Assembly: GCA_027593235.1 (NCBI GenBank)
Contig: JAQCIU010000001.1
Span: 103,132-167,131, forward strand
Reading direction: 5' to 3'
Source: Chloroflexota bacterium
Lineage (GTDB): Bacteria; Chloroflexota; Dehalococcoidia; UBA2979
DNA length: 64,000 nt
The position numbers and the translations under genes are program-made. Position 1 is the stretch's first letter; every line of letters begins with the position of its first letter. Of this stretch, positions 7,310 to 37,948 are shown piece by piece. The notes below the pieces were generated by a model that worked only from the letters and a program-made list of their open reading frames with translations, had not been told where the DNA came from and did not search any database.

Positions 7310-7410
7310 CGGTCCTGCCGCTGGGGGGGCCGCAAGGCTGAGATTCCGGACACCGGAACCACCCCAGGAACCTGATCTCGGTAATCCGAGCGTAGGGAAG
7401 CGGTGTATGT
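7310..7410 (+). promoter_or_regulatory. TPP (THI-box) riboswitch aptamer
   Basis: Read directly: CUGGGGGGGCCGCAAGGCUGAGAUUCCGGACACCGGAACCACCCCAGGAACCUGAUCUCGGUAAUCCGAGCGUAGGGAAGCGG. This matches the conserved CUGAGA, ACCUGAUCNGGNUAAUNCC and GCGNAGGGAA blocks. P1 is ccgcu/agcgg. Confidence 0.9.
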
Positions 7411-7524
7411 CGAAGATGTGGACCTCCGGGCCCGACCGTTCGCGTACCTCTCGTACTTCTCTTCGTGATCGATTCTCTGATCCGTTCCTTCGCGGCGCAT
7501 CCGTGCAGCCGAAGGAGGAGCGGA

Positions 7525-7830
7525 ATGCTTGCAGAGATCCAGGTACTGCCGAACCCCCCGGGAACGCCCGAGGACTACTACCGACACGTTGAGGCGGCGA
7601 TCGCGGTCATCCAGACCTCGGGCATCACCTACGAGGTCGATGCCCTCGGCACGACGCTCGACGGTGACGCCGACGCCATCTGGGCCACCCTACGCCGTGC
7701 GCACGAAGCCGTGCTGGCGGCCGGCGCCGACAGCGTAGTGACGGTGGTGAAACTGGCCCAATCCGGAGCCACTCGTCCCGACGCCACGATCGAGTCGCTG
7801 ACCGGAAAGTTCCGCGAGGGCGCCTCGTGA
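7525..7830 (+). CDS. MTH1187/YkoF-like thiamine/HMP-binding protein
   Basis: MLAEIQVLPNP... and the ACT-like fold pattern fit this family. ATG 7525 is preceded by GAAGGAGGAG. It is the first gene after the TPP riboswitch. Confidence 0.75.
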   Translation: MLAEIQVLPNPPGTPEDYYRHVEAAIAVIQTSGITYEVDALGTTLDGDADAIWATLRRAHEAVLAAGADSVVTVVKLAQSGATRPDATIESLTGKFREGAS

Positions 7831-8615
7831 CCGGCGCGCTGCCGCGCGTGCGGCGGCTGGCGTGGGAGCTGCTCCCGGCCGCGATCTTCCTCGTGCTCGC
7901 GATCGCGGGCTGGGAGATCTGGGTCCGCGCGCGTGACGTGCCGAGCTACCTCGTGCCCGCGCCGAGCGAGCTGTGGCAGGCCTTCCTCGATCAGCGTGGG
8001 ACGCTGCCGGCGCACACGCGAACGACGCTCAGCGAGGCAATGCTCGGGCTGTTCTTCGCCGCGGTGCTCGGCGTCGTGCTGGCGGCGCTGATCGCCAGCG
8101 TGCCGATCGCGCGCCGGGTGCTGTACCCGCTGCTGGTGCTGAGCCAGAACATCCCGGTGCTGGTGCTCGCGCCGTTGCTGGCCGTCTGGTTCGGCTTCGG
8201 CATGACGCCGAAGGTCGTGATCGTCGTGCTGATCGGCTTCTTCCCGATCGCCGTGAACACCGCCGACGGCCTGCTCCGCGCCGACCGCGAGATGGTCGAC
8301 CTGGTGCGGAGCATGGGCGCGAGTCGCTGGCAGGTGCTGCGAACGGTGCTGGTGCCCTCGGCGGTGCCATCGTTTTTCGCGGGGCTCCAGATCGGCGCGG
8401 CCTACGCCGTGATCGGCGCGGTGATCGCGGAGTGGATGGGCGCCAGCAGCGGTCTGGGCCTGTTCATCACCCGCTCGCAGCGAGCGTTCCGTACCGACCA
8501 GATCTTCATGGCGGTGGTGCTGATCGCCCTCGTGAGCATCGCGCTCTTCGCGTGCGTGCAGTTGCTCGCCCGCCTCGTCATGCCCTGGCGCCAGGCAGGC
8601 GCTGAGACCAATTGA
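7827..8615 (+). CDS. thiX: ABC transporter permease (NitT/TauT family), ThiX-like
   Basis: The product has 6 TM helices and an EAA-like loop (DGLLRADREMVDLVRSMGASRWQ). Its start overlaps the upstream stop by 4 nt. Confidence 0.8.
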   Translation: MTGALPRVRRLAWELLPAAIFLVLAIAGWEIWVRARDVPSYLVPAPSELWQAFLDQRGTLPAHTRTTLSEAMLGLFFAAVLGVVLAALIASVPIARRVLYPLLVLSQNIPVLVLAPLLAVWFGFGMTPKVVIVVLIGFFPIAVNTADGLLRADREMVDLVRSMGASRWQVLRTVLVPSAVPSFFAGLQIGAAYAVIGAVIAEWMGASSGLGLFITRSQRAFRTDQIFMAVVLIALVSIALFACVQLLARLVMPWRQAGAETN

Positions 8616-8707
8616 GGGCGCCGAACGGCGTTGAAACGAACCGAGAACTGAGAACGACCGTGCCGCGACGGGGACAAACGCGGCGCGGTCGCCAGAGAGG
8701 AACTGAG

Positions 8708-9751
8708 ATGAAACGACTACTGACCGGAGCGTTGCTGCTCCTGAGTGTGTTCGCCTTCGGGGCGTGCTCCGACGATGGCGACGCCACAGCAACTGCGGGG
8801 CCGGCCGACACCGCCACCGTTGGGACGGGCGACGAGCCCGCCGATCCGGTGTCCGTGACCGTCATGCTCGACTGGACGCCGAACACGAACCACATCGGCG
8901 TCTACGCAGCCCTCGGACAGGGCTACTACGCGGAAGCCGGCCTGGACGTGCGGATCATCGAGCCGGCCGCCGCCGGCGTGGAAGCGGTGGTCGCCGAGGG
9001 CCAGGCCGACTTCGGGTTCTCGTACTCGGAGGCGCTGCTGCCGGCACGCCTCGCGGGCGTGGGCATCACCTCGATCGCGACGGCGCTGCCGCACAACGAG
9101 TCGAGCCTGATGTCGCTCGCCAGCGCCGGCATCGAGCGCCCTCGGGACTTCGAGGGCAAGCGTTACGGCGGCTTCGGCGGCGTGCTGGAGCAGCGACTAA
9201 TCGAGACGTTGGTCGCCTGCGACGGCGGCGATCCGTCGAAGGTCGAGTTCGTCGAGGTCGGCAACATCGACTACATCCCCGGGATGCAGCAGGACCGCTT
9301 CGACTTCGTCTGGGTCTTCGAGGGCTGGGACGTGATCCGTGCGCGCGGCCTCGAGGGCGTCGAGGTGACGACGCTGCCGTTCATCGACTACACCGAGTGC
9401 ATCCCGGACTGGTACACCCCGATCATCGTCACCGACGACGACCTGATCGCGAACAACCCGGAGCTGGTGCGGGTCTTCCTCGCGGCGACGGCCCGCGGCT
9501 ACGACTTCGCCGCCAGCAACCCGGACGAGGCCGCGACGGACCTCCTCACCGCGGTGCCGGAACTCGACGAGCAACTCGTCCGCGACAGCGCCGCCTATCT
9601 CGCCAGCCACTTCACGGATGGCGCTGGCTGGGGCCAACAGCAGGATGCGATCTGGGTCGGTTTCGAGGCGTTCCTGCGCGAGGCGGGGTTGATCGAGGAG
9701 CCGGTCGATGTGTCCACGGTCTACACCAACGAGTTCCTACCCGCCTCGTGA
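8708..9751 (+). CDS. thiY: NMT1/THI5-like substrate-binding lipoprotein, ThiY-like (HMP/formylaminopyrimidine binding)
   Basis: ATG 8708 gives the lipoprotein signal MKRLLTGALLLLSVFAFGAC. LDWTPNTNHIGVY and the overall pattern are typical of THI5-like binding proteins. Confidence 0.75.
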   Translation: MKRLLTGALLLLSVFAFGACSDDGDATATAGPADTATVGTGDEPADPVSVTVMLDWTPNTNHIGVYAALGQGYYAEAGLDVRIIEPAAAGVEAVVAEGQADFGFSYSEALLPARLAGVGITSIATALPHNESSLMSLASAGIERPRDFEGKRYGGFGGVLEQRLIETLVACDGGDPSKVEFVEVGNIDYIPGMQQDRFDFVWVFEGWDVIRARGLEGVEVTTLPFIDYTECIPDWYTPIIVTDDDLIANNPELVRVFLAATARGYDFAASNPDEAATDLLTAVPELDEQLVRDSAAYLASHFTDGAGWGQQQDAIWVGFEAFLREAGLIEEPVDVSTVYTNEFLPAS

Positions 9752-12781: not shown

Positions 12782-13965
12782 ATGAACTGGTGGCCGGCCG
12801 CTTCCGGTGACGCGTGGACGTGGGGCTGGCAGGCCTTCCCCGGCGTCTGGCTGTTCATCGCCCTGATCGCCGGCGCCTACGTCGCCGCGCTTCGCGGTCC
12901 GGGACGGCGTCGCACCCGCCTCGGTGAGCCCGCGGCCAGCGGGCGCCAGCGGCTCTACTTCGTCCTCGGCCTCGTCGCGCTCTGGCTCGCGATCGATTGG
13001 CCGCTCGGCCTCCTCGGCACGGGCTACTCGCTCGCTGCCCGCATCGTTCATCACATGACGATCGGCTTCGTCGCCACGCCGCTGCTCCTGCTCGGGCTCC
13101 CCGAGTGGATGGCTTCGGCACTCGTCCGCGCTCGAAGGATGCGGGCGGTCATGCGGCAGTTGCTGCGACCGTGGGTCGCGTCGCTGCTCTTCGACGCCGC
13201 GTTCCTCGTCTCGAGCATCCCGCCCGTCGTGAACGGATGGCAGCCGTCTCAGGCCGAATCGTTCGCGATCACAGTGATGTAGGTCGCGTCCGGCCTGCTC
13301 GTCTGGTGGCCGCTGGTCGCGCCGGCCGGCTCGTTCGGGCGGCTCGGTTACCTGCTGATTGCGCCGTACCTGTTCACCCAGTCCCTGCTCCCCAAGGTCC
13401 CGGCCGCCTACTACATCTTTTCCGGTGCCTCGTACGACGACCTGTACCGCGACGCCCCGCGCGCCTGGTCCGACATCTCCGCGGGACTCGACCAGCAGAT
13501 CGCCGGCGCCGTCATCTGGCTGGTCGACGGCATCCTCGTCGTCACCGCGATCCACATGCTGACGCTCCGCTGGCAGCGCGACGAACGGATGCAGGGCGTG
13601 GTCCGCGACTTCGGGCTCCCCGTCAGCCCTCGCGCGCTGTCGCTGCTCTTCGAGGAGCCCGGCGCCTGGGAGGCGATGCAGCGCCTCGCCTCGATGGCGC
13701 GCGTGCAGCTCGGGGAGACCGCCGCCCACGCCGCGCTCGGCTCGACTTCCGGCTGCCGGAGGTGCTCACCGCCGACACCCGCGAGCAAGTCGTCCTCGAG
13801 GTACGCGTTGCCCTCAACCCCGTCGAGCAGCTCGAACTCTGGGAGCGCATCGAACGCGGATACTCGGCCTATCTCGAGGGACTGACCGCGGGGCGGCGAG
13901 TGGCGGTGCGCCGACGCGTGGGCTTCCGTGTCGTGGAGTACGCGCTCACAGCCGTCGAGGGCTAA
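12782..13965 (+). pseudogene. CtaG-like cytochrome c oxidase assembly membrane protein with extra C-terminal soluble domain; in-frame TAG at 13280-13282 and a frame change near 13725-13745
   Basis: It is a paralog of the intact gene at 48923..49759. An ungapped alignment puts the TAG opposite Trp (AITVM*VASGLLVWW vs AIDALWLVAALIFWL). Coding third-position GC continues in frame 2 to about 13735, then in frame 1 to TAA 13963-13965. Confidence 0.7.
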
Positions 13966-14530
13966 GGCGCCTCGTACGCCGCGACGAGGACGACGAAACT
14001 GAGCGAGGCACCTCGGTAGGTCGCGCCGATCTCCCAGCAGCCGGGCGTGAGCGAGCCGCCGCTAATCATGAACTCGTGCAGCTCGCCCCTCGGACGGATG
14101 CCATGGGTTACGGGGCCGGGGAGTTCGGTCAACCCCGGACCGTCGAGCTGCCGATGCACTCTGTGGAGTGCCGGCTCTGGCTCCTCGTGCCAGTCGAACG
14201 CGGTCGAGAACCAGAACTGCTTCAGCGTCAGCCGGCCATCGTCGTTGACGCTCCAGTTCGCGCCGTTCAGGTCGAGTAGTGTCCAGAGGTCGCCGTCGCC
14301 GTACCAGACGGCGTCGTACAACGGTGGTGGCACCGGTGCCAGTCCGAGGGCGGCGAGAACGCCGGCTGAGGCGGGGTCGTGACCGGGCAGGCCTCGCCGC
14401 TGGCGAGCCGCGTCGCCCCCTGGGAGCATCCGGCCCAGAGCATCGCGAGAAGCGCGAGCACTCCGAGGGCTGCGAGTCCGCGGAGCGCGGACCGCGCTGG
14501 TAGCGACGGGTGGTGTTTCATGAGAGACAT
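13962..14530 (-). pseudogene. Hypothetical lipoprotein split by a frameshift at a C5/G5 homopolymer (14416-14420)
   Basis: Track ORF 14267..14530 supplies a lipoprotein signal (LGVLALLAMLWAGCS). The mature part (PLYDAVWYGDGDLWTLLDLNGANW...) is in the frame of ORF 13962..15026. One extra G in the GGGGG run would join them. Confidence 0.55.
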
Positions 14531-14606
14531 ACACCGCCGCGCCTCCGTTGGTTCCGCCCGGACGCGCTAGATCGACGAGGACTGAACGCTCGGCGAGGGA
14601 GCTTTG

Positions 14607-16412
14607 ATGGCGCGTCCTGACCCCCACTCCTACTTCGACGACACCCAGCCGCGCACGCGCCACCTCGAGCTGACGCTCGACGTCGACTTCGAGGAACGCC
14701 GCCTCCGCGGCCGCGCCACCCTCGTCCTCGACCCGCCGGTCCCCGCGGTCGTCGACCCCGACGGCCCGTCGCCCGTGCTCGACCTCGACACCGACGGACT
14801 GACCATCGAGGCGCTGCAAGTCGACGGCGCCCTTGTCGGCGGAATCCTCAGCGACGAAGACGCGGTGCTCGGCCGTCGCCTCCGCATCGACCTCCCCGCC
14901 GGCGCCTCCCGCGTCACGATCGACTACCAGACAGCTACCGAGGCGATCGGCCTCCAGTGGCTCGAGCCGTCGCAGACCGCCGCCGGCGAGCATCCCTTCC
15001 TCTTCTCGCAGTGCCAGCCGATCCACGCCCGCTCCGTCGTCCCCGTGCAGGACTCACCCGCCGCCCGCGTCACGTTCGAGGCGGTGCTGACCGTCCCCGC
15101 TCCGCTCGTCGCGGTGATGGCCGCCGGACCGGCCACCGAGGAGCCAGACTCGCCCGAGGGCACCCGAACCTTCCGCTTCAAGATGCCCCAGGCGATCCCG
15201 CCGTACCTGATCGCGTTCGCGGTCGGCGACCTCGAGGCCCGCGATATTTCAGAGCGCACGCGGGTCTGGGCCGAGCCCTCGATGGTCGAGGCGGCGGCGT
15301 ACGAGTTCGCCGAGACCGAGCAGATGATGGCGACCGCCGAGGAGATGTTCGGCCCCTACGACTGGGACCGCTACGACCTGCTGGTGCTGCCGCCGTCCTT
15401 CCCGTACGGCGGGATGGAAAACCCTCGGCTGACCTTCCTCACGCCGACGGTGATCGCCGGCGACCGCTCGCTCGTCGACGTGATCGCGCACGAGCTGGCG
15501 CACTCCTGGACCGGCAACCTGATCACCAACGCCACCTTCGACCACTTCTGGCTCAACGAGGGCGCCACCACCTGGGCCGAACGTCGCATCGTCGAAGCGC
15601 TGCACGGCGAAGAGTCGGTCGCCCTCGACTGGGCGATCGGTGAACAGGGCCTGCAGGTCGCGTTCGACCGCTTCGGCCTCGACTCGCCGCTGACGAGGCT
15701 CCGCACCGACCTCGAGGGCGGCGACCCGGACGACGCGTACTCGATCATCCCCTACGAGAAGGGCGCCCGCTTCTTCGCACTCCTCGAGCGCACCGCCGGG
15801 CGCGAGCGCTTCGATGCGTTCATCCGTCGCTACATCGAGCGCTACCGCTTCACCTCGATCACCACCGAGGAGTTCGTCGCCTTCCTCGACAGCGAGCTGC
15901 CCGGCGTCGCCGCCGAGGTGGGTGCGAACGCCTGGCTCTACGCGCCCGGCATACCCTCGAACGCCCCGCAGTTCCGCTCCGAACGCCTCGAGTCGCTGAT
16001 CGCCCGCGGCGCCGGCTTCGCCACCGGCGAGCGCCCGACCGCCGAGGAGGTCGCGGCCTGGGCACCCTCGGAGCTGCTCGTCTACCTCCAGCACGTCCCG
16101 CGCCCGCTCCCTCCCGAGGACTGCGCGTGGCTGGACGAACACCTGTCGCTGATGAACCGCGGCAACTACGAGCTCCTCGTCGAGTGGCTCACCATCGCCG
16201 CCGCCTCGGACTACGAACCGGCCTTCGGCCGCCTCGCCGACGTCCTCACCGAGGTGGGCCGCATGAAGTACCTCCGCCCGCTCTACCTCGCGATGGGCGG
16301 ACACCCTCGGACGCGCGCGCTGGCGAGGGAGATCTTCGAGCGCGCGTCACCGGGGTACCACGAGCTCTCGCGCCGAGCGGCGGAGGATGTGATGGCGGGG
16401 TACCCGGAGTAA
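14607..16412 (+). CDS. M1 family metallopeptidase (leukotriene A4 hydrolase-like aminopeptidase)
   Basis: The product has GGMENP, HELAHSWTGN (HExxH) and WLNEG motifs plus a C-terminal ARM-like domain. ATG 14607 follows GAGGGAG. Confidence 0.9.
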   Translation: MARPDPHSYFDDTQPRTRHLELTLDVDFEERRLRGRATLVLDPPVPAVVDPDGPSPVLDLDTDGLTIEALQVDGALVGGILSDEDAVLGRRLRIDLPAGASRVTIDYQTATEAIGLQWLEPSQTAAGEHPFLFSQCQPIHARSVVPVQDSPAARVTFEAVLTVPAPLVAVMAAGPATEEPDSPEGTRTFRFKMPQAIPPYLIAFAVGDLEARDISERTRVWAEPSMVEAAAYEFAETEQMMATAEEMFGPYDWDRYDLLVLPPSFPYGGMENPRLTFLTPTVIAGDRSLVDVIAHELAHSWTGNLITNATFDHFWLNEGATTWAERRIVEALHGEESVALDWAIGEQGLQVAFDRFGLDSPLTRLRTDLEGGDPDDAYSIIPYEKGARFFALLERTAGRERFDAFIRRYIERYRFTSITTEEFVAFLDSELPGVAAEVGANAWLYAPGIPSNAPQFRSERLESLIARGAGFATGERPTAEEVAAWAPSELLVYLQHVPRPLPPEDCAWLDEHLSLMNRGNYELLVEWLTIAAASDYEPAFGRLADVLTEVGRMKYLRPLYLAMGGHPRTRALAREIFERASPGYHELSRRAAEDVMAGYPE

Positions 16413-29172: not shown

Positions 29173-29772
29173 ATGCGCGTTCGAGGGGTTGCACTCGCCG
29201 GCGGACTCGCCGCCGTCGGCACACTCTGGGCGGCGGTCGCGCGGCGCAGCCGCGGCGGCGACGGCGCTGACGACGAGGATCGCAGCGGGAACGGCCCGCC
29301 CTCGTTCCGATCGCACTTCACCGTGCGCGCCCCGCTCGAGGTGGTCGCCCGCTTCCACGCCGATCCTCGGGCGCTGCTCCGCTTGACCCCGCCGCCGACG
29401 ATCATCCGCGTGCACCGCATGGATCCGCTCGCCGAAGGCTCGGTCAGCGACTTCACGATGTGGGTCGGTCCGCCGATCCACTGGCGTGCCGTCCACAGCG
29501 ACCTCGGCCCGAATGGCTTCACCGATACCCAGGAGCGCGGCCCGATGGCGCGCTGGGTGCACCGCCATTACTACCGCGCACTCGCGCCCGATCGCACCGA
29601 GGTGACCGACGAGATCTGGTACGCCCACCCGGCGGGGTGGCGCGGCCTGCTCACGCGCCTGCTCTTCTCCACCATCCCGCTACGCGGCCTCTTCGCCTAC
29701 CGCTCGTGGGTCACCCGCCGCACCCTCGACTCGCGACGCGACAGCTCGCTGGAGTGGCACGCCTCCGAGTAG
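29173..29772 (+). CDS. SRPBCC (START/polyketide cyclase-like) family protein with N-terminal anchor
   Basis: FTVRAPLEVVARFHADPRALLRLTPP...WRAVH...MARWVHRHYY fits the SRPBCC pattern. Confidence 0.65.
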   Translation: MRVRGVALAGGLAAVGTLWAAVARRSRGGDGADDEDRSGNGPPSFRSHFTVRAPLEVVARFHADPRALLRLTPPPTIIRVHRMDPLAEGSVSDFTMWVGPPIHWRAVHSDLGPNGFTDTQERGPMARWVHRHYYRALAPDRTEVTDEIWYAHPAGWRGLLTRLLFSTIPLRGLFAYRSWVTRRTLDSRRDSSLEWHASE

Positions 29773-29972
29773 CGCCCGATTCGCGGGAGATCCGCGTCAG
29801 GCCGTCACGCCGGGCACGGAGTCGCGCCTCGGCCCCCGCGGAGCTTCGCTCCGAGTCTGTCTAGGTTGTGAAAAAGCTCTTTAGCGAATGGACATAACCT
29901 CACCCATTCCACACCGTGGAAGGAGTATGTTCACCGCGACCCCCGCTCCGCGCGGGGGCCGACGGTCCGGGG

Positions 29973-30263
29973 ATGGATCCCGCGGACCGGTCCTTCCTGG
30001 CGGGGGGACTCGGCAACCAGCACGGATGCGAGTCGGAGGGGAAACACCTCCCGACGGTCACCGGCGTGCACCAATCTCGGTCGGCGTGCGACCTCGATAC
30101 CGTCTGGGACGACCAGTTCGACGAGCAATACACAAGAAGGCCCCGACGTGGCAGCAACCACGTCGAGGCCGGTGCGAGGGGTGCGTCAGCCCGCCCCCAG
30201 TGCAATCACAGATTGTACGCGGGTTCGCGACCTCTTACGGGTCCGAGCCCGCGTGTTCGTTAA
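29973..30263 (+). CDS. Possible small acidic ORF in the leader of the TasA-like cluster
   Basis: Third-position GC is very high from about 29940 to 30130 in this frame only (MDPADRSFLAGGLGNQHGCESEGKHLPTVTGVHQSRSACDLDTVWDDQFDEQY...). There is no good SD and no recognised family. Confidence 0.25.
   Translation: MDPADRSFLAGGLGNQHGCESEGKHLPTVTGVHQSRSACDLDTVWDDQFDEQYTRRPRRGSNHVEAGARGASARPQCNHRLYAGSRPLTGPSPRVR
30217..30260 (+). terminator. Long stem-loop followed by GTTCGTT; possible attenuator/terminator in the leader
   Basis: acgcgggttcg (30217-30227) pairs with cgagcccgcgt (30244-30254), with one G-U pair. An inner gacc/ggtc helix extends it. The downstream T-tract is weak. Confidence 0.3.
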
Positions 30264-30395
30264 CGCGCGCCTCGCAAACCTCGCACCTCGGACGGAGGTG
30301 TACGCGAGGGAGATTCGAGTCCCCGGGGACGACAACGACCGCCCCGGCTGCGAATGCGATCAGACGACGAACACCATTCTTGGAAGGATGGACCT

Positions 30396-30863
30396 GTGCT
30401 CCGGAAACTCTTTGCAACAACCATGGGTGTCGCGCTCACCGGAGCGGCGATCGTCGGTGGCGTCTACGCGTGGGATGCGAGTGCCGGTTCCGGCACACAG
30501 GTGGCCACGGTCGGTACCGCCTCGATCTCAGTGCAGTACACCCCGAGCGCGAACCTGCTCGGTCCGAACGGAACCTCCGTGCTCGTTGGCGATGGCTCCA
30601 TCACCAACGGAGGAAGTTTCCCTGTATCGATCAGCAGCGGATCCGTCGCCATCGATGCGTTGACGAGTAACGCACCGAATGGTCCGGGCACTTGCGTCCT
30701 CGGAGATTTCGCCGGATCAGTCACCGTGACTGATGCTTCAGCAGTGGCACCGACCGCCAGCGGCGGCGGGTTCGACGTCAATGTCCTTACCGGTGCCGGA
30801 GCCGCTGCAGATTGCCAGGGGGACACGGTCGATTACACCGTGACCATCAACGCAACGACGTAG
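30396..30863 (+). CDS. TasA/camelysin-like secreted protein with SipW-type signal peptide (paralog 1)
   Basis: GTG 30396 lies 7 nt after GGAAGGA. The N-terminus MLRKLFATTMGVALTGAAIVGGVYAWDASAG parallels B. subtilis TasA ...LALVGGGTWAAFND. The body is beta-rich and Ser/Thr/Gly-rich. Third-position GC is lower than in neighbouring genes. Confidence 0.65.
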   Translation: MLRKLFATTMGVALTGAAIVGGVYAWDASAGSGTQVATVGTASISVQYTPSANLLGPNGTSVLVGDGSITNGGSFPVSISSGSVAIDALTSNAPNGPGTCVLGDFAGSVTVTDASAVAPTASGGGFDVNVLTGAGAAADCQGDTVDYTVTINATT

Positions 30864-30876
30864 GAGAGGCTTGGAA

Positions 30877-31467
30877 GTGAGTCGGTCGGCGACGCTTCGC
30901 GCGGTCTTCGCTTCCATGTTTCTTCTGGCGTCCGTCGGGGCGTCCTTGGTCGGTGCGGCGTTCGCATGGAGCGCGAACGGCGGTGCGATTGACACCGCGA
31001 GTGTGGGGGCGAACGGCATGATTGTCCTCATCTTCCCCAGCGGTTCGATCGGACCAAACGGGCAAACGGCGACCGTCGCTACCGGACGAATTAAGAACTC
31101 GGGGGATTTCACGCTGGCAATTACCGGCGGCTCCGTAAGCATCGATGGCCTGACTCCGGCAGCTCCGGGCGGCCTCGCCTGTGCTGCCGGAGATTTTTCG
31201 GGGAACGTCATTGCGTTGCCGCCGTCTCACGTTGGACCCGGTTCGGTCAGCATCCCCGATTTCAATGTGGTGATCGCCACGGCGCTCGACCGGCGATCAG
31301 ATCGCCGGGAGACTCTGGCTGCATCTCCCGAATGCCGGCGGTTGGCTCCAGAAGCTACGGGAGCCATTCAACTTCGGGCTGTTGGCGATGGGGATGGCGC
31401 TCGCGGCCGGAGTCGGCGGGACGGAACTGCGGCGGCGACGCCGGAGACGGAGCAGAACAATGCGTGA
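30877..31467 (+). CDS. TasA/camelysin-like secreted protein (paralog 2) with apparent frame switch near 31274-31292
   Basis: GTG 30877 follows GGAGAGG. LLASVGASLVGAAFAWSANGG and the body align with paralog 1 up to DFNVVIATAL. After that, third-position GC collapses in this frame and rises in the +1 frame. Confidence 0.55.
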   Translation: MSRSATLRAVFASMFLLASVGASLVGAAFAWSANGGAIDTASVGANGMIVLIFPSGSIGPNGQTATVATGRIKNSGDFTLAITGGSVSIDGLTPAAPGGLACAAGDFSGNVIALPPSHVGPGSVSIPDFNVVIATALDRRSDRRETLAASPECRRLAPEATGAIQLRAVGDGDGARGRSRRDGTAAATPETEQNNA

Positions 31468-32695
31468 TTCTCAGGAACGATCGGGCGCCCCTGCCGTCGA
31501 TCGCCGCGCGGACGGCGACCAGCGCGGTGGCTGGCGGCGCGATTGGCGGCGCGATTGGCGACGGGAATGGCGCGGCACGGTGCCGATGGCGCTGATGGGC
31601 GTCGTGAGCCTCGGTGCGGTGCTGATCGTCGTGTTCGCGATGCTCGCGTTCACCTCGTTCCGGCGGAGCACGGAGAGCAGCGAGTACGTCGAGCGCCTCC
31701 AGTACCAGCAGGAAGCCTCGATGCACTACGAGGTCACGATGGCGCGTTCGTCGCTGTACCCGGGCGGAGTGTTCCTCCCGCGCGGCCCCGCGCTCGACAC
31801 GGCGGCCTTCCAGGGCGTCGGCTCGACCGCGACCGTCGACAGCTTCTCGACCCGCCTCGCCAGCGACCTCGAGATCGGCATTCACTACGAGCTGGTCAGC
31901 GCGGCGTTCGCCGATCCGGCGGTCGATCCGCAGGCGCTCGCGGGGACGGTCAGCGCCACCCTCGAGATACAGTCCGGGCGCGACGGGTGGATCCAGGTCC
32001 GCCCCTTGATCGGCACGCAGGAGTTCAGCGGTCCGACCGTGGACGCGATCGGGACCGTCAATCTTCGTGGCATCGCCGCGCTCGTCGAGCGGATCGAAGA
32101 GGAAACCGGGATCGTCCCGCCTCAGTATCTGCTCCGCGTGGTCCCGACGATTGAGCTGAGCGGCCCGATCGGTGTCGAGTCGATCCGAGAGGTCTTCAGC
32201 CCCGTCTTCACATTCGCCTATAACTCGACTCAGGTCGCGACCGATGCGCGTCTGGTGCGCGGTGAATCGCGCATCATCGGACAGGACGTCACCTCCCAGG
32301 AGCGGATCAGCTACGCCGGATTCCAGGGCAGCGTGTCGGAGGCCCGTCAGATCGCGACGGCTGGTCTGGCGCTCTCAATCGCCGCCGTGGCCATCGCCGG
32401 AGCGATGCTCCAGTTGGGAATCGGCAGCGACGAGGACTCCCACATCCGCCAGCGATACCGCTCGCGGCTGGTGGCCGTCGCCACCAGCGGCAGCGCGCAC
32501 CCACGTGACACGATCCAGCTCGCCTCGATCCAGGATCTGGCGCGGGTCGCCGACCGCTCCGGCGGGTTGATCCTCTCCGAGCGGGGTCATCGCGGGACCC
32601 GCTACTTCGTGCCCGACGGTGACGAGATCTACGAGTACGAAACCGTCCGCGGCGAACGGCCGAGCAGCCGGGCGGCAGTGCCGGAGGTGCAGTGA
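31460..32695 (+). CDS. Two-TM membrane protein with large external domain and cytoplasmic tail, DUF5305-like architecture
   Basis: ATG 31460 (the track ORF starts at TTG 31382 in the same frame). The layout is an Arg/Trp-rich N-terminus, a TM (MALMGVVSLGAVLIVVFAMLAF), about 270 aa external, a second TM (ATAGLALSIAAVAIAGAMLQL), and the tail ...RYFVPDGDEIYEYE. The family assignment is from memory of topology and context. Confidence 0.55.
   Translation: MRDSQERSGAPAVDRRADGDQRGGWRRDWRRDWRREWRGTVPMALMGVVSLGAVLIVVFAMLAFTSFRRSTESSEYVERLQYQQEASMHYEVTMARSSLYPGGVFLPRGPALDTAAFQGVGSTATVDSFSTRLASDLEIGIHYELVSAAFADPAVDPQALAGTVSATLEIQSGRDGWIQVRPLIGTQEFSGPTVDAIGTVNLRGIAALVERIEEETGIVPPQYLLRVVPTIELSGPIGVESIREVFSPVFTFAYNSTQVATDARLVRGESRIIGQDVTSQERISYAGFQGSVSEARQIATAGLALSIAAVAIAGAMLQLGIGSDEDSHIRQRYRSRLVAVATSGSAHPRDTIQLASIQDLARVADRSGGLILSERGHRGTRYFVPDGDEIYEYETVRGERPSSRAAVPEVQ
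31532..31575 (+). repeat. 12-nt tandem repeat (tggcggcgcgat x2, then diverged copies) encoding WRRD-WRRD-WRRE-WRG
   Basis: Read directly at 31532-31543 and 31544-31555 (identical), followed by tggcgacgggaa and tggcgcggcacg. Confidence 0.8.
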
Positions 32696-33087
32696 TGCGT
32701 CTGTTCTTCGGCGCCGTAGCGCTGGCAGTGGTTGCCGCGGGTGTGGTTGCCGGGGCTGCCGGGCTTCAGATCGCCGGTGGCCCCGGACAGGTGATCAGCG
32801 CCGGCGTGATCGGACACTCGGCGCCGGATCCCCTCGTGCTCGCGGTCGGCGATGACGCCGCCGTGGAGTTGGAGTGGGCTGCGGTGGCGGGCGCGACCTC
32901 GTATCGCCTGCTCCGCTCCGACGGCGGCCCGTTCACCCTCATCGCCACGCTCAGCGTCGGCGATTTCGACGACACGACGGTCGTGCCTGGCGGCAGCTAC
33001 TCGTACCGCGTCTACGCCGTGGGCGCCGATGGCGCGGTGAGCGACGCGCCAGCGGCAGGCAGCATCGCCGTCCCGCTCGAACCCTGA
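32695..33087 (+). CDS. Membrane-anchored fibronectin type III domain protein
   Basis: ATG 32695 overlaps the upstream TGA, with GGAGG 7 nt upstream. There is an N-terminal TM, then VELEWAAVAGATSYRLLRSDGGPF...GGSYSYRVYAVGADG, a classic FN3 pattern. Confidence 0.7.
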   Translation: MRLFFGAVALAVVAAGVVAGAAGLQIAGGPGQVISAGVIGHSAPDPLVLAVGDDAAVELEWAAVAGATSYRLLRSDGGPFTLIATLSVGDFDDTTVVPGGSYSYRVYAVGADGAVSDAPAAGSIAVPLEP

Positions 33088-33166
33088 GTGGCGGCGGCTG
33101 TACCCCGATCACTCCACGGCGGATGAGTCCCAACCGGTCGCGTGCCCTCGGGAAGGGCGTGCGGCG

Positions 33167-34429
33167 CTAGCGGATCGCGCCGGCGGCGCGCAGTTGCGCG
33201 ATCGCCTCGGCGGAGTAGCCGGCGGCTTCCAGTACGGCGTCCGTGTCTCGGCCCAGGGTCGGTGCGGCGCCCTGCGCGGCCGGTGGCGTGACGCTCATCT
33301 TCCACGGCGGCGCAGCCATCTGCTGCGGGCCGGACAGTTCGTGATCCAGGTCGACCATGTACTGGTTCGCCGTCACCTGCGGGTGCGTCGCCAGCTCCTC
33401 CACGAAGTGGACTTTGCTGACCGGGACGCCGTTCTCCTCGAAGACCCGCTCCCAGTGCTCCGAGGTGTTTCCGCGGATCATGTCCTCGACCTGCTCGGTG
33501 ATCGCCGCGTCGGTCATGATCTGCTCGGGGTTGTAGAGGTCGTAGTCGGGCTCGTCGCGGTTGTGCTCGATCTTCAGCGCGGTGCGCACCTTCGCGCGCA
33601 ACGAAGCGGAGAGCGCGCCGATCGCGATCGCGCCGTCCTTCGTCGCGAACGCGCGGTAGTAGATCTGCGGCGTGCGTTCGTGCTGACGCACGAACTCCGC
33701 GTAGTCGACGCCGTCGGCTTCGCGTGTTTCGAGGTCGGCAAGCAGCCGCCCGCGCGTCGCCGCGTCCGCCGCCGGGAGCGACATCGAGGTGCCCTGGATC
33801 GTCAGCGCGTTGATCAGCAGCGACGTCTCCAGCATCTGCCCCTCGCCCGTCTGCGCGCGATGGAACAGCGCCGCGCAGATGCCGAGGGCAAGCGAGTAGC
33901 CGGTGGTGTAGTCGGCGTACGCGCCGCCAACCTTGGGGCTGCCCCGCTCGTCCAGCTTGCCGAGCCCCGCCATCAGGCCAGAAGCCGCCTGCACGACGAT
34001 GTCGTAGCCGGGCCGGTTCGCCCACGGACCTTCGCGGCCGAACGCGGTGTTGTCCGCGTAGATGATGTCTGGCTTGATCGCGCGCACCGCTTCGTAGTCC
34101 AAACCCAGCTTGGCGGGCACGTCCGGGCGGTAGTTGATCACCATGACATCGATCTCTTCGAGCAGCTTGTAGACCACCTGGCGCGCGTCCGGGTGGCCGA
34201 GGTCGATCGCGAGCGAGCGCTTGCCGCGGTTGAGGCCCTGGTAGGTCTTCGACTCCATCGGCAGAAACTGCTGCGTCAGCCGCCACGGCTCCCCGTGCGG
34301 CGGTTCGATCTTGATCACGTCCGCACCCAGGTCCGCGAGGAGCTGGCAGGAGAGGGGGCCGGCGATAATCTGGGTGAAATCGAGGACGCGCACGCCGTTC
34401 AGCGGGCCAGATGCCACGTTGACCTCCAT
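33167..34429 (-). CDS. CaiB/BaiF family (class III) CoA-transferase
   Basis: ATG 34429 gives [44 protein letters not shown], the canonical family N-terminus. Confidence 0.85.
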
Positions 34430-35141: not shown

Positions 35142-36380
35142 GTGCTGACCCGGCCGTTCCTCACGCTCGCCTTCGCGATGTTCGCGGCCACCATGGGCAT
35201 CGGCATGGTGACGCCGATCCTGCCGGTCTACGCGGAGTCACAGGGCGCCTCCGGAGCGGAGATCGGGCTGGCGTTCTCCAGCTTCGCGATCACCCAGCTC
35301 ATGATCAGCCCCTTCAGCGGGCGATTGGCCGATCGCTACGGTCGGAAGATCTTCATCGTCGCGGGGCTCGCCTCATACGTGGTCACGGCGCTGGGTTGGT
35401 ACTACACGGACACCGTGTACTGGACGATCGCCTTCCGCGCGTTCTCCGGCATCGGATCCGCGGTGATCTTCTCGCTGTCGCAGGCCTACATCGGCGACCT
35501 CGCGCCTTCCGGCCGCGAAGGCCGCTACATGGGCACCTTCGGCGTGTTCATGTCGGTCGGCTTCGGGATCGGTCCGCTGCTGGCCGGCGTGATCCGGGAC
35601 CAGTGGGACATCCAGACGGTCTTCGTCAGCATGGCGCTGATGTTCGCGGCGGCGACGGTGTTCGTCGCCTTCGCGTTGCCCCGCTCGCACCGCGCGCGCC
35701 GCGGCGACGCGAACTCGCCGCCGCAGGTCCCCTGGGGGACGATCCTCCGCCATCCCTACGTACAGGCGCTCTACCTCGTCGGCACCTCGCTCTCGTTCGC
35801 CATGGGCGCGAGCTTCACCTTCGTCGCCATCTTCCTCGAGAACGAACTCGCCGCCACCGCGACGATGGTCGGCGCGGTGCTCGCGGTGCAGCAGGTCACC
35901 GGCGGCGCAATGCAACCCCTCTCCGGGCTGCTCGCCGACCGCTTCAACCGCCGCTATCTGATTGTGGTCGGCGCCGTCCTCGTCGCCGCCGGCTACCTGC
36001 TCGCCGCGGTGGTCGGCGCGTACTGGATGATCATCCTCGGCTTCATGCTCGGCGTGGGCGTCGGCAGCTCGATCTCTCAGGTGGCCACCCAGGCGCTGCA
36101 GGTGGACATCGGCCGAGGGCTCGGCATGGCGACGGTGATGAGCCTGCAATCGACCTCGTTCGGCTCGGGCATCCTGCTGGGGTCGATGCTGACGGGCGTC
36201 GTGAACGACCAGATCGGGACACGTGCGGTGTTTGTCACCGCCTCGATCGTCATCCTCGCCGGGGCCTCGGCGTTCCTGCTGCGCACTGCCGGGCGGCCGA
36301 TCGAGCGTTTCGCGGTCGCCACCGCCGAGGGCAATGACGCTCACGAGGGTGGCGAGCACGCGGAGGCCGCCAGCGGGTAG
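35142..36380 (+). CDS. MFS transporter (drug/H+ antiporter-like)
   Basis: The product has 12 TM helices and the motif-A-like sequence GRLADRYGRK. Confidence 0.85.
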   Translation: MLTRPFLTLAFAMFAATMGIGMVTPILPVYAESQGASGAEIGLAFSSFAITQLMISPFSGRLADRYGRKIFIVAGLASYVVTALGWYYTDTVYWTIAFRAFSGIGSAVIFSLSQAYIGDLAPSGREGRYMGTFGVFMSVGFGIGPLLAGVIRDQWDIQTVFVSMALMFAAATVFVAFALPRSHRARRGDANSPPQVPWGTILRHPYVQALYLVGTSLSFAMGASFTFVAIFLENELAATATMVGAVLAVQQVTGGAMQPLSGLLADRFNRRYLIVVGAVLVAAGYLLAAVVGAYWMIILGFMLGVGVGSSISQVATQALQVDIGRGLGMATVMSLQSTSFGSGILLGSMLTGVVNDQIGTRAVFVTASIVILAGASAFLLRTAGRPIERFAVATAEGNDAHEGGEHAEAASG

Positions 36381-36482
36381 GCCCCGCCCCTTACCTTGTT
36401 CGCGATCGCCGGCTGGACCGTGGCTGGGGGTCAGATCCGGCAGCGCCGGCATGGCTCATTGCCCCCTGTTCGTTCGAGGACC

Positions 36483-37857
36483 TGGGGGGTGTTGCCACCG
36501 GCGATGCTGGGTGCCATGGACCGCTGATGGGGACCGGCGCCGCGAGCGCTCGTTCGTAAGGTGGATGTCGGCTGAGGCACCCGACCGGATGTCGGACGCG
36601 CACGGTCTCGAGCGGAGGCGGCATGAGGCCGGAAGCGCAGATTGAGGTGTTCATCGGGCTCGATGTCGGGAAGACGGCGCACCACGCCACGCTGATCGAC
36701 CGAAACGGAGAAGTACTCTCCACACGAGCGGCCCGTAATGACCAGGCGGCGCTTGAGGCCCTGCTGCGCTTCGCAGCCGAGCACGGCCCGGCGGCCCTGG
36801 TGCTCGACCAGCCGGGATCGATCGCGGCATTGACCCTCGCCGTCTGCCGGCAGCACGGCGTCCCCGTGGCGTACGTGCCGGGGCTGGTGATGCGGCGGGC
36901 GGCCGACCTCTATCCGGGCGAGGCCAAGACCGATGTCCGCGACAGCTTCGTGCTGGCCGACTTCGCCCGCACCCACCCGGGCAATCTGCGCTGGCTCGAG
37001 GTCACAGACGAGAGACTCGAGGAGCTGCGCCTGCTCTCCGGATACGACGATGACCTCGCCGATGACCGGGTGCGGGTCGTGAACAGGCTGCGTGACCTGC
37101 TCACGAGCCTGCATCCGCCGCTGGAGGCGCTCCTCGGGCCGCGCCTCGACCATCCAGCGGTGCGCGCGCTGCTCAAGCGCTACCCGACACCCTCCGCCCT
37201 GCGCGAGGCCGGCCGCGGGCGCGTCCTGCGCCTGCTCCGACAGCGCGCGCCTCGAATCGCCGAACGCCTGGCCGACGACGTCGTCGTCGTGCTGAACGCT
37301 CAGACGATCACTGTGCCGGCGGAGCCACGGCTCGGGACGATCGTCGCGGAACTGGCGAGTGAACTGGACCGGCTCGACGAACGGAGGGACCGGCTGGCGA
37401 GCGAGATTGAGGCGGTCTTTCGTAGCCATCCGCTGGGACCGATCCTGATCTCGCTGCCCGGCGTGGGGCCAAGGCTGGGCGCCAAGATCCTCGTCGAAGT
37501 CGGTGACGGAACCCGCTTCGCCAGCGGCGCTCAGCTCGCCAGCTACGCCGGCCTGGCGCCAGTCACGCGTCAGTCGGGCACGAGCATCCGTGGCGAGAAG
37601 CGCAGCCGGCGCGGCAACCATCGGCTCAAGAACGCGCTCTTCCTCGCGGCCTTCTGCTCGTTGCGCCATCCCGCTTCGAAGGCCTTCTACGACCGCAAGC
37701 GCCTCCAGGGCAAGAAGCACAACGCCGCCGTGATCTGTCTTGCCCGTCGCCGCTGCGATGTCATCCTCGCCATGCTCAGCACCGCGACCGCGTATGACCC
37801 GCACCACGCCGATCGCACCGCCGTCGCCGCTTGACAACGTCATGGGGACACCCCCCA
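36483..37857 (+). mobile_element. IS110-family insertion sequence (boundaries tentative)
   Basis: A perfect 10-bp inverted repeat, tggggggtgt (36483-36492) and acacccccca (37848-37857), brackets the transposase gene. This leaves a 131-nt 5' non-coding part and a 14-nt tail, about 1375 bp total. IS110 ends are often irregular, so the limits are uncertain. Confidence 0.45.
36623..37834 (+). CDS. IS110 family transposase (DEDD-type)
   Basis: The N-terminus is FIGLDVGKTAHHATLID and the C-terminus is LISLPGVGPRLGAKILVEVGD..RF....LASYAGLAPVTRQSG......R.SRRGNHRLKNALF. Confidence 0.9.
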   Translation: MRPEAQIEVFIGLDVGKTAHHATLIDRNGEVLSTRAARNDQAALEALLRFAAEHGPAALVLDQPGSIAALTLAVCRQHGVPVAYVPGLVMRRAADLYPGEAKTDVRDSFVLADFARTHPGNLRWLEVTDERLEELRLLSGYDDDLADDRVRVVNRLRDLLTSLHPPLEALLGPRLDHPAVRALLKRYPTPSALREAGRGRVLRLLRQRAPRIAERLADDVVVVLNAQTITVPAEPRLGTIVAELASELDRLDERRDRLASEIEAVFRSHPLGPILISLPGVGPRLGAKILVEVGDGTRFASGAQLASYAGLAPVTRQSGTSIRGEKRSRRGNHRLKNALFLAAFCSLRHPASKAFYDRKRLQGKKHNAAVICLARRRCDVILAMLSTATAYDPHHADRTAVAA

Positions 37858-37948
37858 AGACTGGCCGCCAGCGAGCCGGCGCGTGCCTTCCTCCCCCAAC
37901 ACGCCCGCGATGAGTACGATGCGCGTCGCGTATATCGAGGGAGATGCC

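Follow-up and report, generated by a model that had tools for sequence, protein, structure and literature searches.

We analyzed a 64,000-nucleotide (nt) stretch of DNA from a Chloroflexota bacterium (contig JAQCIU010000001.1, positions 103,132 to 167,131; hereafter the window), in which four co-directional genes on the plus strand, g1 to g4, resemble parts of a TasA-type extracellular fibre module. g1 (30396-30863) encodes an intact subunit of 155 amino acids (aa) from a TasA-superfamily-like family. g2 (30877-31467) is an open reading frame (ORF) of 196 aa that joins a paralogous, family-like subunit portion (30877-31287, 137 codons) to a non-homologous tail (31288-31467, 59 codons), which three-frame translations identified as out of frame. 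g3 (31460-32695) encodes a 411-aa DUF5305 protein, and g4 (32695-33087) a 130-aa FN3 protein recognized by comparing a profile with PDB sequences. Between the subunit genes and g3 lies a remnant of a SipW/archaeal-type signal peptidase I (31283-31459, +), detected by tblastn with a related protein, P0003. The genes follow an untranslated intergenic leader of 623 nt (29773-30395, +); leader and genes together make up an accessory island of about 3.4 kb (29773-33166, +) that syntenic relatives do not have. On its left is an SRPBCC gene (29173-29772) and on its right a CoA-transferase gene (33167-34417) convergent to the island genes. An original prediction, made from the letters of the sequence, had placed the four genes behind a leader of roughly 540 nt, which agrees with the 536 nt counted from an AT-rich spot at about 29860.

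The calls for g1 to g4 agree with those in public assemblies, where g1 is annotated (NCBI) as MAG hypothetical protein O3A10_00680 [Chloroflexi bacterium], MAG standing for metagenome-assembled genome. After g1 there is a GGAGAGG ribosome-binding site, followed by the GTG start of g2. The TGA stop of g2 (31465-31467) overlaps the ATG of g3 (overlap sequence ATGCGTGA), and a GGAG motif is located 7 nt 5' of that ATG. The stop of g3 and the start of g4 overlap as TGATG.

A search with g3 returned two relatives only, P0003 (567 aa, 66-67% identity) and P0004 (591 aa, 47%). Both are longer than g3 by about 160 aa at the N-terminus, and this extension matches TIGR02228 sigpep_I_arch best (45-46 bits, E ~1e-11 to 1e-12) and also Pfam Peptidase_S24. 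Judged by these profile matches, P0003 and P0004 are predicted SipW/Sec11-type signal peptidases I fused to DUF5305. The start Met of g3 is conserved inside the fusion proteins. DUF5305 is fused to the peptidase in P0003, P0004 and contig L009, whereas in the window it is preceded by an inactive remnant only.

In tblastn, homology to P0003 begins at nt 31283, 177 nt upstream of the g3 ATG, with residue 101. The remnant, about 59 codons in the frame of g3, corresponds to P0003 residues 101-160 and shows 70% identity over the 56 residues 101-156 (E=2e-23). Preserved in it are the last part of the peptidase domain, the second transmembrane (TM) helix of that domain and an RRRRRR loop. The catalytic half of P0003 carries Ser40 in SMEP, His76 in IHR and GDN at 91-93; residues 1-100 of P0003 and P0004 had no counterpart anywhere in the window (tblastn), and stand-alone SipW queries found no match and no intact peptidase there. 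The frame of g3 is interrupted by a stop at 31271-31273, beyond which a TTG at 31382 would be the earliest possible start. The original prediction had stated that no SipW/Sec11-type peptidase is present. None is intact, but the C-terminal remnant had been missed; gene callers hide it inside the tail of another ORF. Apparently, the peptidase is missing by damage, with a truncation scar left behind, and not by design.

g2 is damaged at the same place. It aligns to its intact orthologue P0006, from contig L007, only as far as ...ATAL (nt 31287), and the last ~22 residues of the family (GAPADCQGDxVxYTVTIxVTNP), with the second conserved Cys and the last beta-strand, are gone. The lost C-terminal motif was found nowhere in the window except in g1. 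The g2 tail is the peptidase remnant read out of frame and is basic (isoelectric point, pI, 8.25). Homology to the SipW domain of contig L005 starts at about 31275-31283, and homology to the g2 family runs to 31287. Because the two homologies overlap by about 10 nt, we placed the rearrangement junction between the subunit cassette and the resident sipW::DUF5305 gene at about 31275-31287; the junction may hold a microhomology of ~10 nt. Directly behind it (31290-31308) is a perfect 19-nt palindrome, CCGGCGATCAGATCGCCGG, which we considered as a recombination site. It is probably there by chance, since the corresponding coding sequence of L005 contains it in imperfect form.

An overlap of that length could also seed a misjoin, and the two halves of the island differ in GC content at third codon positions (GC3), as would be expected if the g2/sipW junction were an assembly chimera of two loci from the same genome or from co-occurring genomes. 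We regard such a chimera as highly improbable. Three assemblies (ENA ERZ23495042, Logan SRR2027830 and Logan SRR19040531), produced by different pipelines and going back to two or more sequencing runs, show one and the same junction, so that an artefact is unlikely; identity to the window is 100% for contigs L002 and L003 and 99.97% for L001. Both ends of the island, moreover, abut conserved host flanks on one contig.

Employing SRPBCC homologues, we reached five syntenic contigs (L010-L014) whose flanks show 74-86% nt identity to the window. In these contigs only 17-50 bp separate the stop of the SRPBCC gene from that of the CoA-transferase gene. Homology of the window to them breaks at 29728 and resumes at 33163-33167. 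With 29773-33166 missing from these relatives and homology broken at its ends, the whole 3.4 kb is an insertion, which fits the suggestion in the original prediction that the locus may have been acquired horizontally.

Relatives of the island genes occur in two types of module. In module A, g1-family genes often form tandem pairs (as in L009 and L007), and a stand-alone SipW-type gene lies directly downstream of them in all five contigs (L006, L008, L009, L015, L017) that were informative, that is, had enough sequence downstream of the g1-family gene. No DUF5305 gene is adjacent at these loci. Module B (L004, L005, L009) consists of other small secreted proteins, then a SipW::DUF5305 fusion, then a secreted protein that overlaps the stop of the fusion gene; L004 and L005 have an FN3 protein in this last position, L009 an unrelated protein of 148 aa that is rich in Gly. 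Contig L009 has both types about 4 kb apart: module A at 7476-9131 (two g1-family genes and a stand-alone SipW) and module B at 13259-16225 (two small secreted proteins, the SipW::DUF5305 fusion and the 148-aa Gly-rich protein). Its layout plausibly pictures the ancestral state before a deletion.

By homology, the island in the window brings together the subunits of module A with the truncated peptidase-accessory gene and the FN3 gene of module B. Because it mixes the two modules, the four genes are not a conserved unit. In L005, module B adjoins the same CoA-transferase gene as in the window, so module B was resident at the site before the rearrangement. The left part of the island has a GC3 of ~0.70, and so has the L007 orthologue; this part seems to have arrived later or to be what a larger deletion spared.

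These results bear on the central claim of the original prediction, namely a coherent, uncharacterised four-gene module for a fibre or surface layer that natively works without a dedicated SipW-type peptidase. The genes are tightly packed and co-directional, and no intact peptidase, TapA or sortase is encoded among the neighbouring genes scanned, as such a module would have it. We consider it extremely improbable. A peptidase remnant stands in the frame of g3, whose nearest homologues are fused to the enzyme; g2 is truncated; and the two halves of the island represent different module types with different GC3. The predicted co-occurrence of the genes likewise failed: in the related loci examined the four were never together, g1/g2-type genes going with a stand-alone SipW, and SipW::DUF5305 and FN3 genes with different small subunits.

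Two further observations concern the relatives. The small secreted proteins encoded 5' of SipW::DUF5305 (L004 9545-9925, L009 13259-14079, L005 1-111) are unrelated in sequence to the g1 family. In L015 (1450-2838) and L017 (8649-10121), from Chloroflexi or Dehalococcoidia MAGs, the SipW-type peptidases (463+ and 490 aa) next to g1-family genes have long Pro/Thr/Ser-rich C-terminal extensions that come after a further TM segment, an architecture not mentioned in the literature cited here.

As predicted, g1 and g2 encode small secreted proteins and are paralogues of each other (42% identity over 118 aa, E=1e-21). In both, the N-terminal hydrophobic segment ends in GG-x-aromatic-A-W; the signal peptide of g1 comprises about residues 1-25 and ends GGVYA|W. 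Mature g1 is acidic (pI 4.05), with 2 Cys and no Lys or Arg. A word-based search with g1 returned g1 alone, and the family emerged only in a full HMMER search with a g1+g2 profile, which gave 128 representatives at E<=1e-3, mostly of 145-175 aa. Where named, their sources are mostly Chloroflexi or Dehalococcoidia MAGs. The family alignment (A3) shows the GG-x-aromatic-A-W signal, an LGPNG motif, an N-x-G motif, two nearly invariant Cys and the C-terminal end ...AP-x-D-C-Q-G-D-x-V-x-Y-x-V-T-I.

The original prediction had likened g1 and g2 to TasA/camelysin-type proteins. At the level of profiles this likeness was not upheld: neither protein matched Pfam, PF12389 Peptidase_M73 included, at E<=1, and weak Peptidase_M73 matches were found in only 2 of 71 family members (best E=2.4e-4). 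The NCBIfam models for the SipW-cognate signal (TIGR04088-type) matched neither g1, nor g2, nor any of the 71 members. The family profile had no match among PDB sequences at E<=10. With hhalign, only 12 residues were aligned to TasA at 5% probability, which is not significant. The hhalign comparison with Pyrococcus abyssi AbpX, for which we used the sequence in the preprint supplement, was not significant (E=0.19; 21 columns including a PG...C motif); AbpX and g1 have acidic pI, two Cys and size in common. The nearly invariant G21, A25 and W26 of the family (GG-x-aromatic-A|W) resemble GGGTWA|AF of TasA, as judged by eye.

At the level of fold the likeness stood. With the family alignment, AlphaFold2 (AF2) gave a g1 model of high confidence (pLDDT 94), consisting of an N-terminal helix, an unstructured stretch at residues 25-43 and a six-strand beta-sandwich. 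Using this model with the signal helix still included as the Foldseek query, we obtained the TasA fibre 8AUR as the best PDB match (E=9.7e-4, probability 1.00, TMq 0.50), followed by the donor-strand pilins Caf1, FimG, FimA, CfaB and CsuA/B. Among viral structures nothing matched at E<=0.001. We take the TasA superfamily at fold level, comprising TasA, AbpA, AbpX, Tafi and CanA, with a jelly-roll or Ig-like beta-sandwich. By predicted fold and gene context only, the modest match suggests that the g1 family belongs to this superfamily. In the model, residues 25-43 are unstructured, as expected of a free donor strand, and by analogy with the matched fibre proteins the subunits may polymerise by donor-strand complementation.

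The prediction of g3 as a DUF5305-like protein with two TM segments and a conserved tail proved correct. g3 matched PF17231 DUF5305 at 45.7 bits (cut-off 29, E=6.8e-12). Hydropathy placed TM1 at 31571-31666 (residues 38-69) and TM2 at 32348-32428 (residues 297-323), with an ectodomain of ~230 aa between them. In the alignment of g3 with the fusions (A4), the C-terminal cytoplasmic tail is the most conserved part. The architecture described for DUF5305, TM-ectodomain-TM-cytoplasmic domain (10.64898/2026.01.04.697558), is matched by g3. Searching the fusion alignment against genome and metagenome contigs found no related loci.

For g4, a match to Pfam fn3 was not obtained at E<=1, and AF2 on the sequence of g4 alone gave no usable model (pLDDT 43). 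When g4 and two homologues were combined in a profile (A6), comparison with PDB brought up the Fn3-like 3MPC (E=5.3e-14) and 5G56 (6.4e-13), and further FN3con and the FN3 domains of titin, PTPRF and chitinase A1. g4 has one FN3 domain at about residues 39-122 (nt 32809-33060). Its homologues lie 3' of the fusion gene in L004 and L005. The original prediction had it as a membrane-anchored FN3 protein translationally coupled through TGATG; the domain and the overlap were borne out, but the anchor is less likely. The N-terminal hydrophobic segment of g4 ends AGAAGLQI. In L004, AAGLNI ends the hydrophobic segment of both the upstream small protein and the g4 homologue, and this common end therefore suggests a cleavable cognate signal at the N-terminus of g4 in place of an anchor. 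g4 is thus more likely a secreted subunit. Such signal-end motifs, common to the small and the downstream protein within a locus, are AAGLNI in L004 and AASNT(V/I)P in L009.

Modules of this kind have been studied elsewhere. SipW processes TasA. In Haloarcula, deletion of tafD abolishes fimbriae, and TafA stays unprocessed (PMC11821415). DUF5305 (TafG) has been proposed as an accessory subunit of signal peptidase I, and fusions of the two were noted in Chloroflexi, in Anaerolinea thermophila (E8MZY1) and Tepidiforma (WP_158065712.1) (PMC11821415; PMC12337348; 10.64898/2026.01.04.697558). Filaments of TasA, ABP, Tafi and AbpX are held together by donor-strand complementation (PMC9674648, PMC9245690, PMC12337348, 10.64898/2026.01.04.697558). 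On the strength of this literature we expect the intact relatives to export their subunits, cleave them and assemble them into polymers. Small acidic beta-sandwich subunits would carry SipW-type signal peptides and be cleaved by a dedicated signal peptidase I of the archaeal/ER type, either stand-alone or fused at the N-terminus of its proposed accessory subunit, the DUF5305 membrane protein. If they behave as TasA, Tafi, ABP and AbpX do, the cleaved subunits would then form extracellular polymers through donor-strand complementation. The FN3 protein, with a signal of the same kind, is probably a minor or tip subunit.

Given the gene anatomy, the peptidase remnant, the truncations, the insertion and the origin of the island from two module types, we consider it probable (about 0.8) that the region is an accessory island with a rearranged, peptidase-less, chimeric copy of a TasA-superfamily fibre module of known kind. 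In the proposed course of events, a cassette of lower GC3, comprising the leader, g1 and codons 1-137 of g2, would have been fused at about codon 100 to a sipW::DUF5305 gene resident at the site. The joining would have removed the half of the peptidase with the catalytic Ser and His, together with the last strand and the second Cys of g2, which now closes with a 59-aa out-of-frame tail. DUF5305 could then be made only as a stand-alone protein from the conserved internal Met, possibly coupled to translation of g2. The locus would be either a non-functional relic of recent origin or reliant on a peptidase paralogue encoded elsewhere.

Several points weigh against this interpretation. g1, g3 and g4 are intact ORFs, and the remnant shows no extra decay, with 70% identity to P0003 against 66-67% for the whole of g3. 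Either the event took place not long ago, therefore, or selection still acts on the genes; the intact ORFs and the lack of decay in the remnant are consistent with a recent event and do not tell a relic from dependence in trans. The window covers 64 kb of the genome, and a SipW-type peptidase elsewhere could serve g1 and g4. The fold match to TasA is modest (E ~1e-3, TMq 0.50), and profile searches and hhalign gave no sequence-level link of the g1 family to TasA or AbpX. Two of the three assemblies with the junction may come from one sample. The ancestral arrangement may have been a tandem of modules A and B that then suffered a deletion, or a cassette may have been replaced.

The first of these points is also where a different explanation starts, in which the island is a working fibre module whose g1 and g4 products, and perhaps that of g2, are cleaved in trans by a signal peptidase encoded elsewhere in the genome, either a further SipW-type or a housekeeping enzyme. 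The stand-alone DUF5305 protein would act with that enzyme, as TafG does with TafD, encoded by separate genes, in haloarchaea. The intact g1, g3 and g4 have ribosome-binding sites and overlapping stop and start codons, g3 and g4 keep a host-like GC3, two SipW paralogues can share one genome (as in L009), and archaeal taf loci encode DUF5305 separately (PMC11821415). Yet all five informative contigs encode a dedicated peptidase in cis to the g1-family genes, other peptidases did not make up for the loss of tafD in Haloarcula (PMC11821415), the damage to g2 is plain, and no second peptidase is encoded within 64 kb. We therefore hold processing in trans to be rather unlikely. It is less likely still that the peptidase-less arrangement is functional in the sense that the freed DUF5305 protein, the foreign TasA-like pair and the FN3 protein build a fibre with a peptidase supplied in trans. 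If true, it would be a natural separation-of-function variant, with a role of DUF5305 in assembly or anchoring beyond assisting its own peptidase.

The chimeric module, as we interpret it, most invites comparison with three known systems. Tafi (tafA-tafG of Haloarcula hispanica and Natrinema; PMC11821415, PMC12337348) has beta-sandwich pilins with strand donation, which here is an expectation; a dedicated S26-type peptidase, TafD, without which processing fails; TafG, a DUF5305 protein with a proposed role in assisting TafD; and minor or tip subunits in the cluster. Tafi is archaeal and uses Tat signals, whereas the host of the island is a bacterium (Chloroflexi) and its signals look Sec-type. 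TafD and TafG are encoded by separate genes, whereas the peptidase of the island was formerly fused to DUF5305 and is now truncated. The island subunits have no detectable sequence similarity to Tafi pilins.

The tapA-sipW-tasA operon of Bacillus subtilis (PMC9674648, PMC10151520) provides the best structural match of g1, the TasA fibre 8AUR. The two also resemble each other in a signal peptide that ends GG-x-aromatic-A beside an aromatic residue and in a SipW-type peptidase that adjoins the g1-family members of the relatives. However, g1 and g2 have no Peptidase_M73 match and are half the size of TasA, and the island has no TapA but has DUF5305 and FN3 proteins. AbpX-like loci (10.64898/2026.01.04.697558; PMC11821415) have acidic subunits of ~130-160 aa with two Cys, homologues reported in Chloroflexota, and a DUF5305 protein with ectodomain, two TM helices and cytoplasmic domain, for which fusion to signal peptidase I is documented in Chloroflexi. 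The peptidases associated with AbpX are described as 10-TM, whereas those next to g1-family genes are ~180-200 aa or have Pro/Thr-rich tails, and the island copy has lost the peptidase domain.

Modules of TasA-superfamily subunits with signal peptidase I and DUF5305, the Chloroflexi fusions included, were described between 2022 and 2026 (PMC11821415, PMC12337348, bioRxiv 10.64898/2026.01.04.697558), and the system is thus not uncharacterised, as the original prediction had it. What is new here is, first, a family of subunits that is distinct in sequence and has small SipW partners of its own and, second, a naturally occurring chimeric locus from which the peptidase has been deleted. The absence of the peptidase, which could be misread as new biology of peptidase-independent fibres, is a truncation scar. 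The TasA-like family of ~150 aa, with its 128 representative clusters, is consistently paired with SipW-type peptidases, and fibre modules appear to be mobile, modular and prone to decay in marine and freshwater Chloroflexi. The leftover stand-alone DUF5305 gene offers a natural test case of whether the protein is a peptidase accessory only, or more.

Composition differs between the halves of the island. GC3 is 0.69 in g1 and 0.72 in g2, compared with a mean of 0.892 (standard deviation 0.031, minimum 0.80) for 40 other genes of the window, which agrees with the predicted excess of A/T-ending codons in the two TasA-like genes; the g2 tail has a GC3 of 0.56. The GC3 of g3 (0.86) and g4 (0.83) is within the ordinary range of window genes. 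The lower GC described for the island as a whole is therefore confined to its left half. We considered decay after loss of the peptidase as the origin of the low GC3 of g1 and g2. This is disfavoured because the intact L007 orthologues are equally low (0.70-0.74). The start of the locus had also been called the most AT-rich stretch of the window. The 40-nt segment at 29858 (GC 0.38) ties with that at position 1518 as the lowest, but at the 60-100 nt scale the spot (~29854-29900) ranks second to third.

The leader contains a 14-bp GC-rich hairpin at 30139-30170. Leader RNA (29860-30400) folds at -258.6 kcal/mol, compared with -223.0 +/- 6.7 kcal/mol for shuffled sequences (z=-5.3). No Rfam family matched the leader, its ORFs had no match in Pfam, no sigma-70 consensus site was found in it, and comparison with upstream regions of related genes showed no common block and no detectable conservation. 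Spacers of ~600 nt are also present 5' of the first g1-family gene in L009 and L017.

Two features outside the island were recorded. An IS110-family transposase gene (36623-37834, +; DEDD_Tnp_IS110 and Transposase_20) is located in a stretch (36316-37900) that L012 and L013 do not have, a second insertion 3 kb from the island. A thiamine pyrophosphate (TPP) riboswitch (RF00059) at 7313-7415 (+), scoring 69 bits against a gathering threshold of 54.3, is situated upstream of genes starting at 7465.

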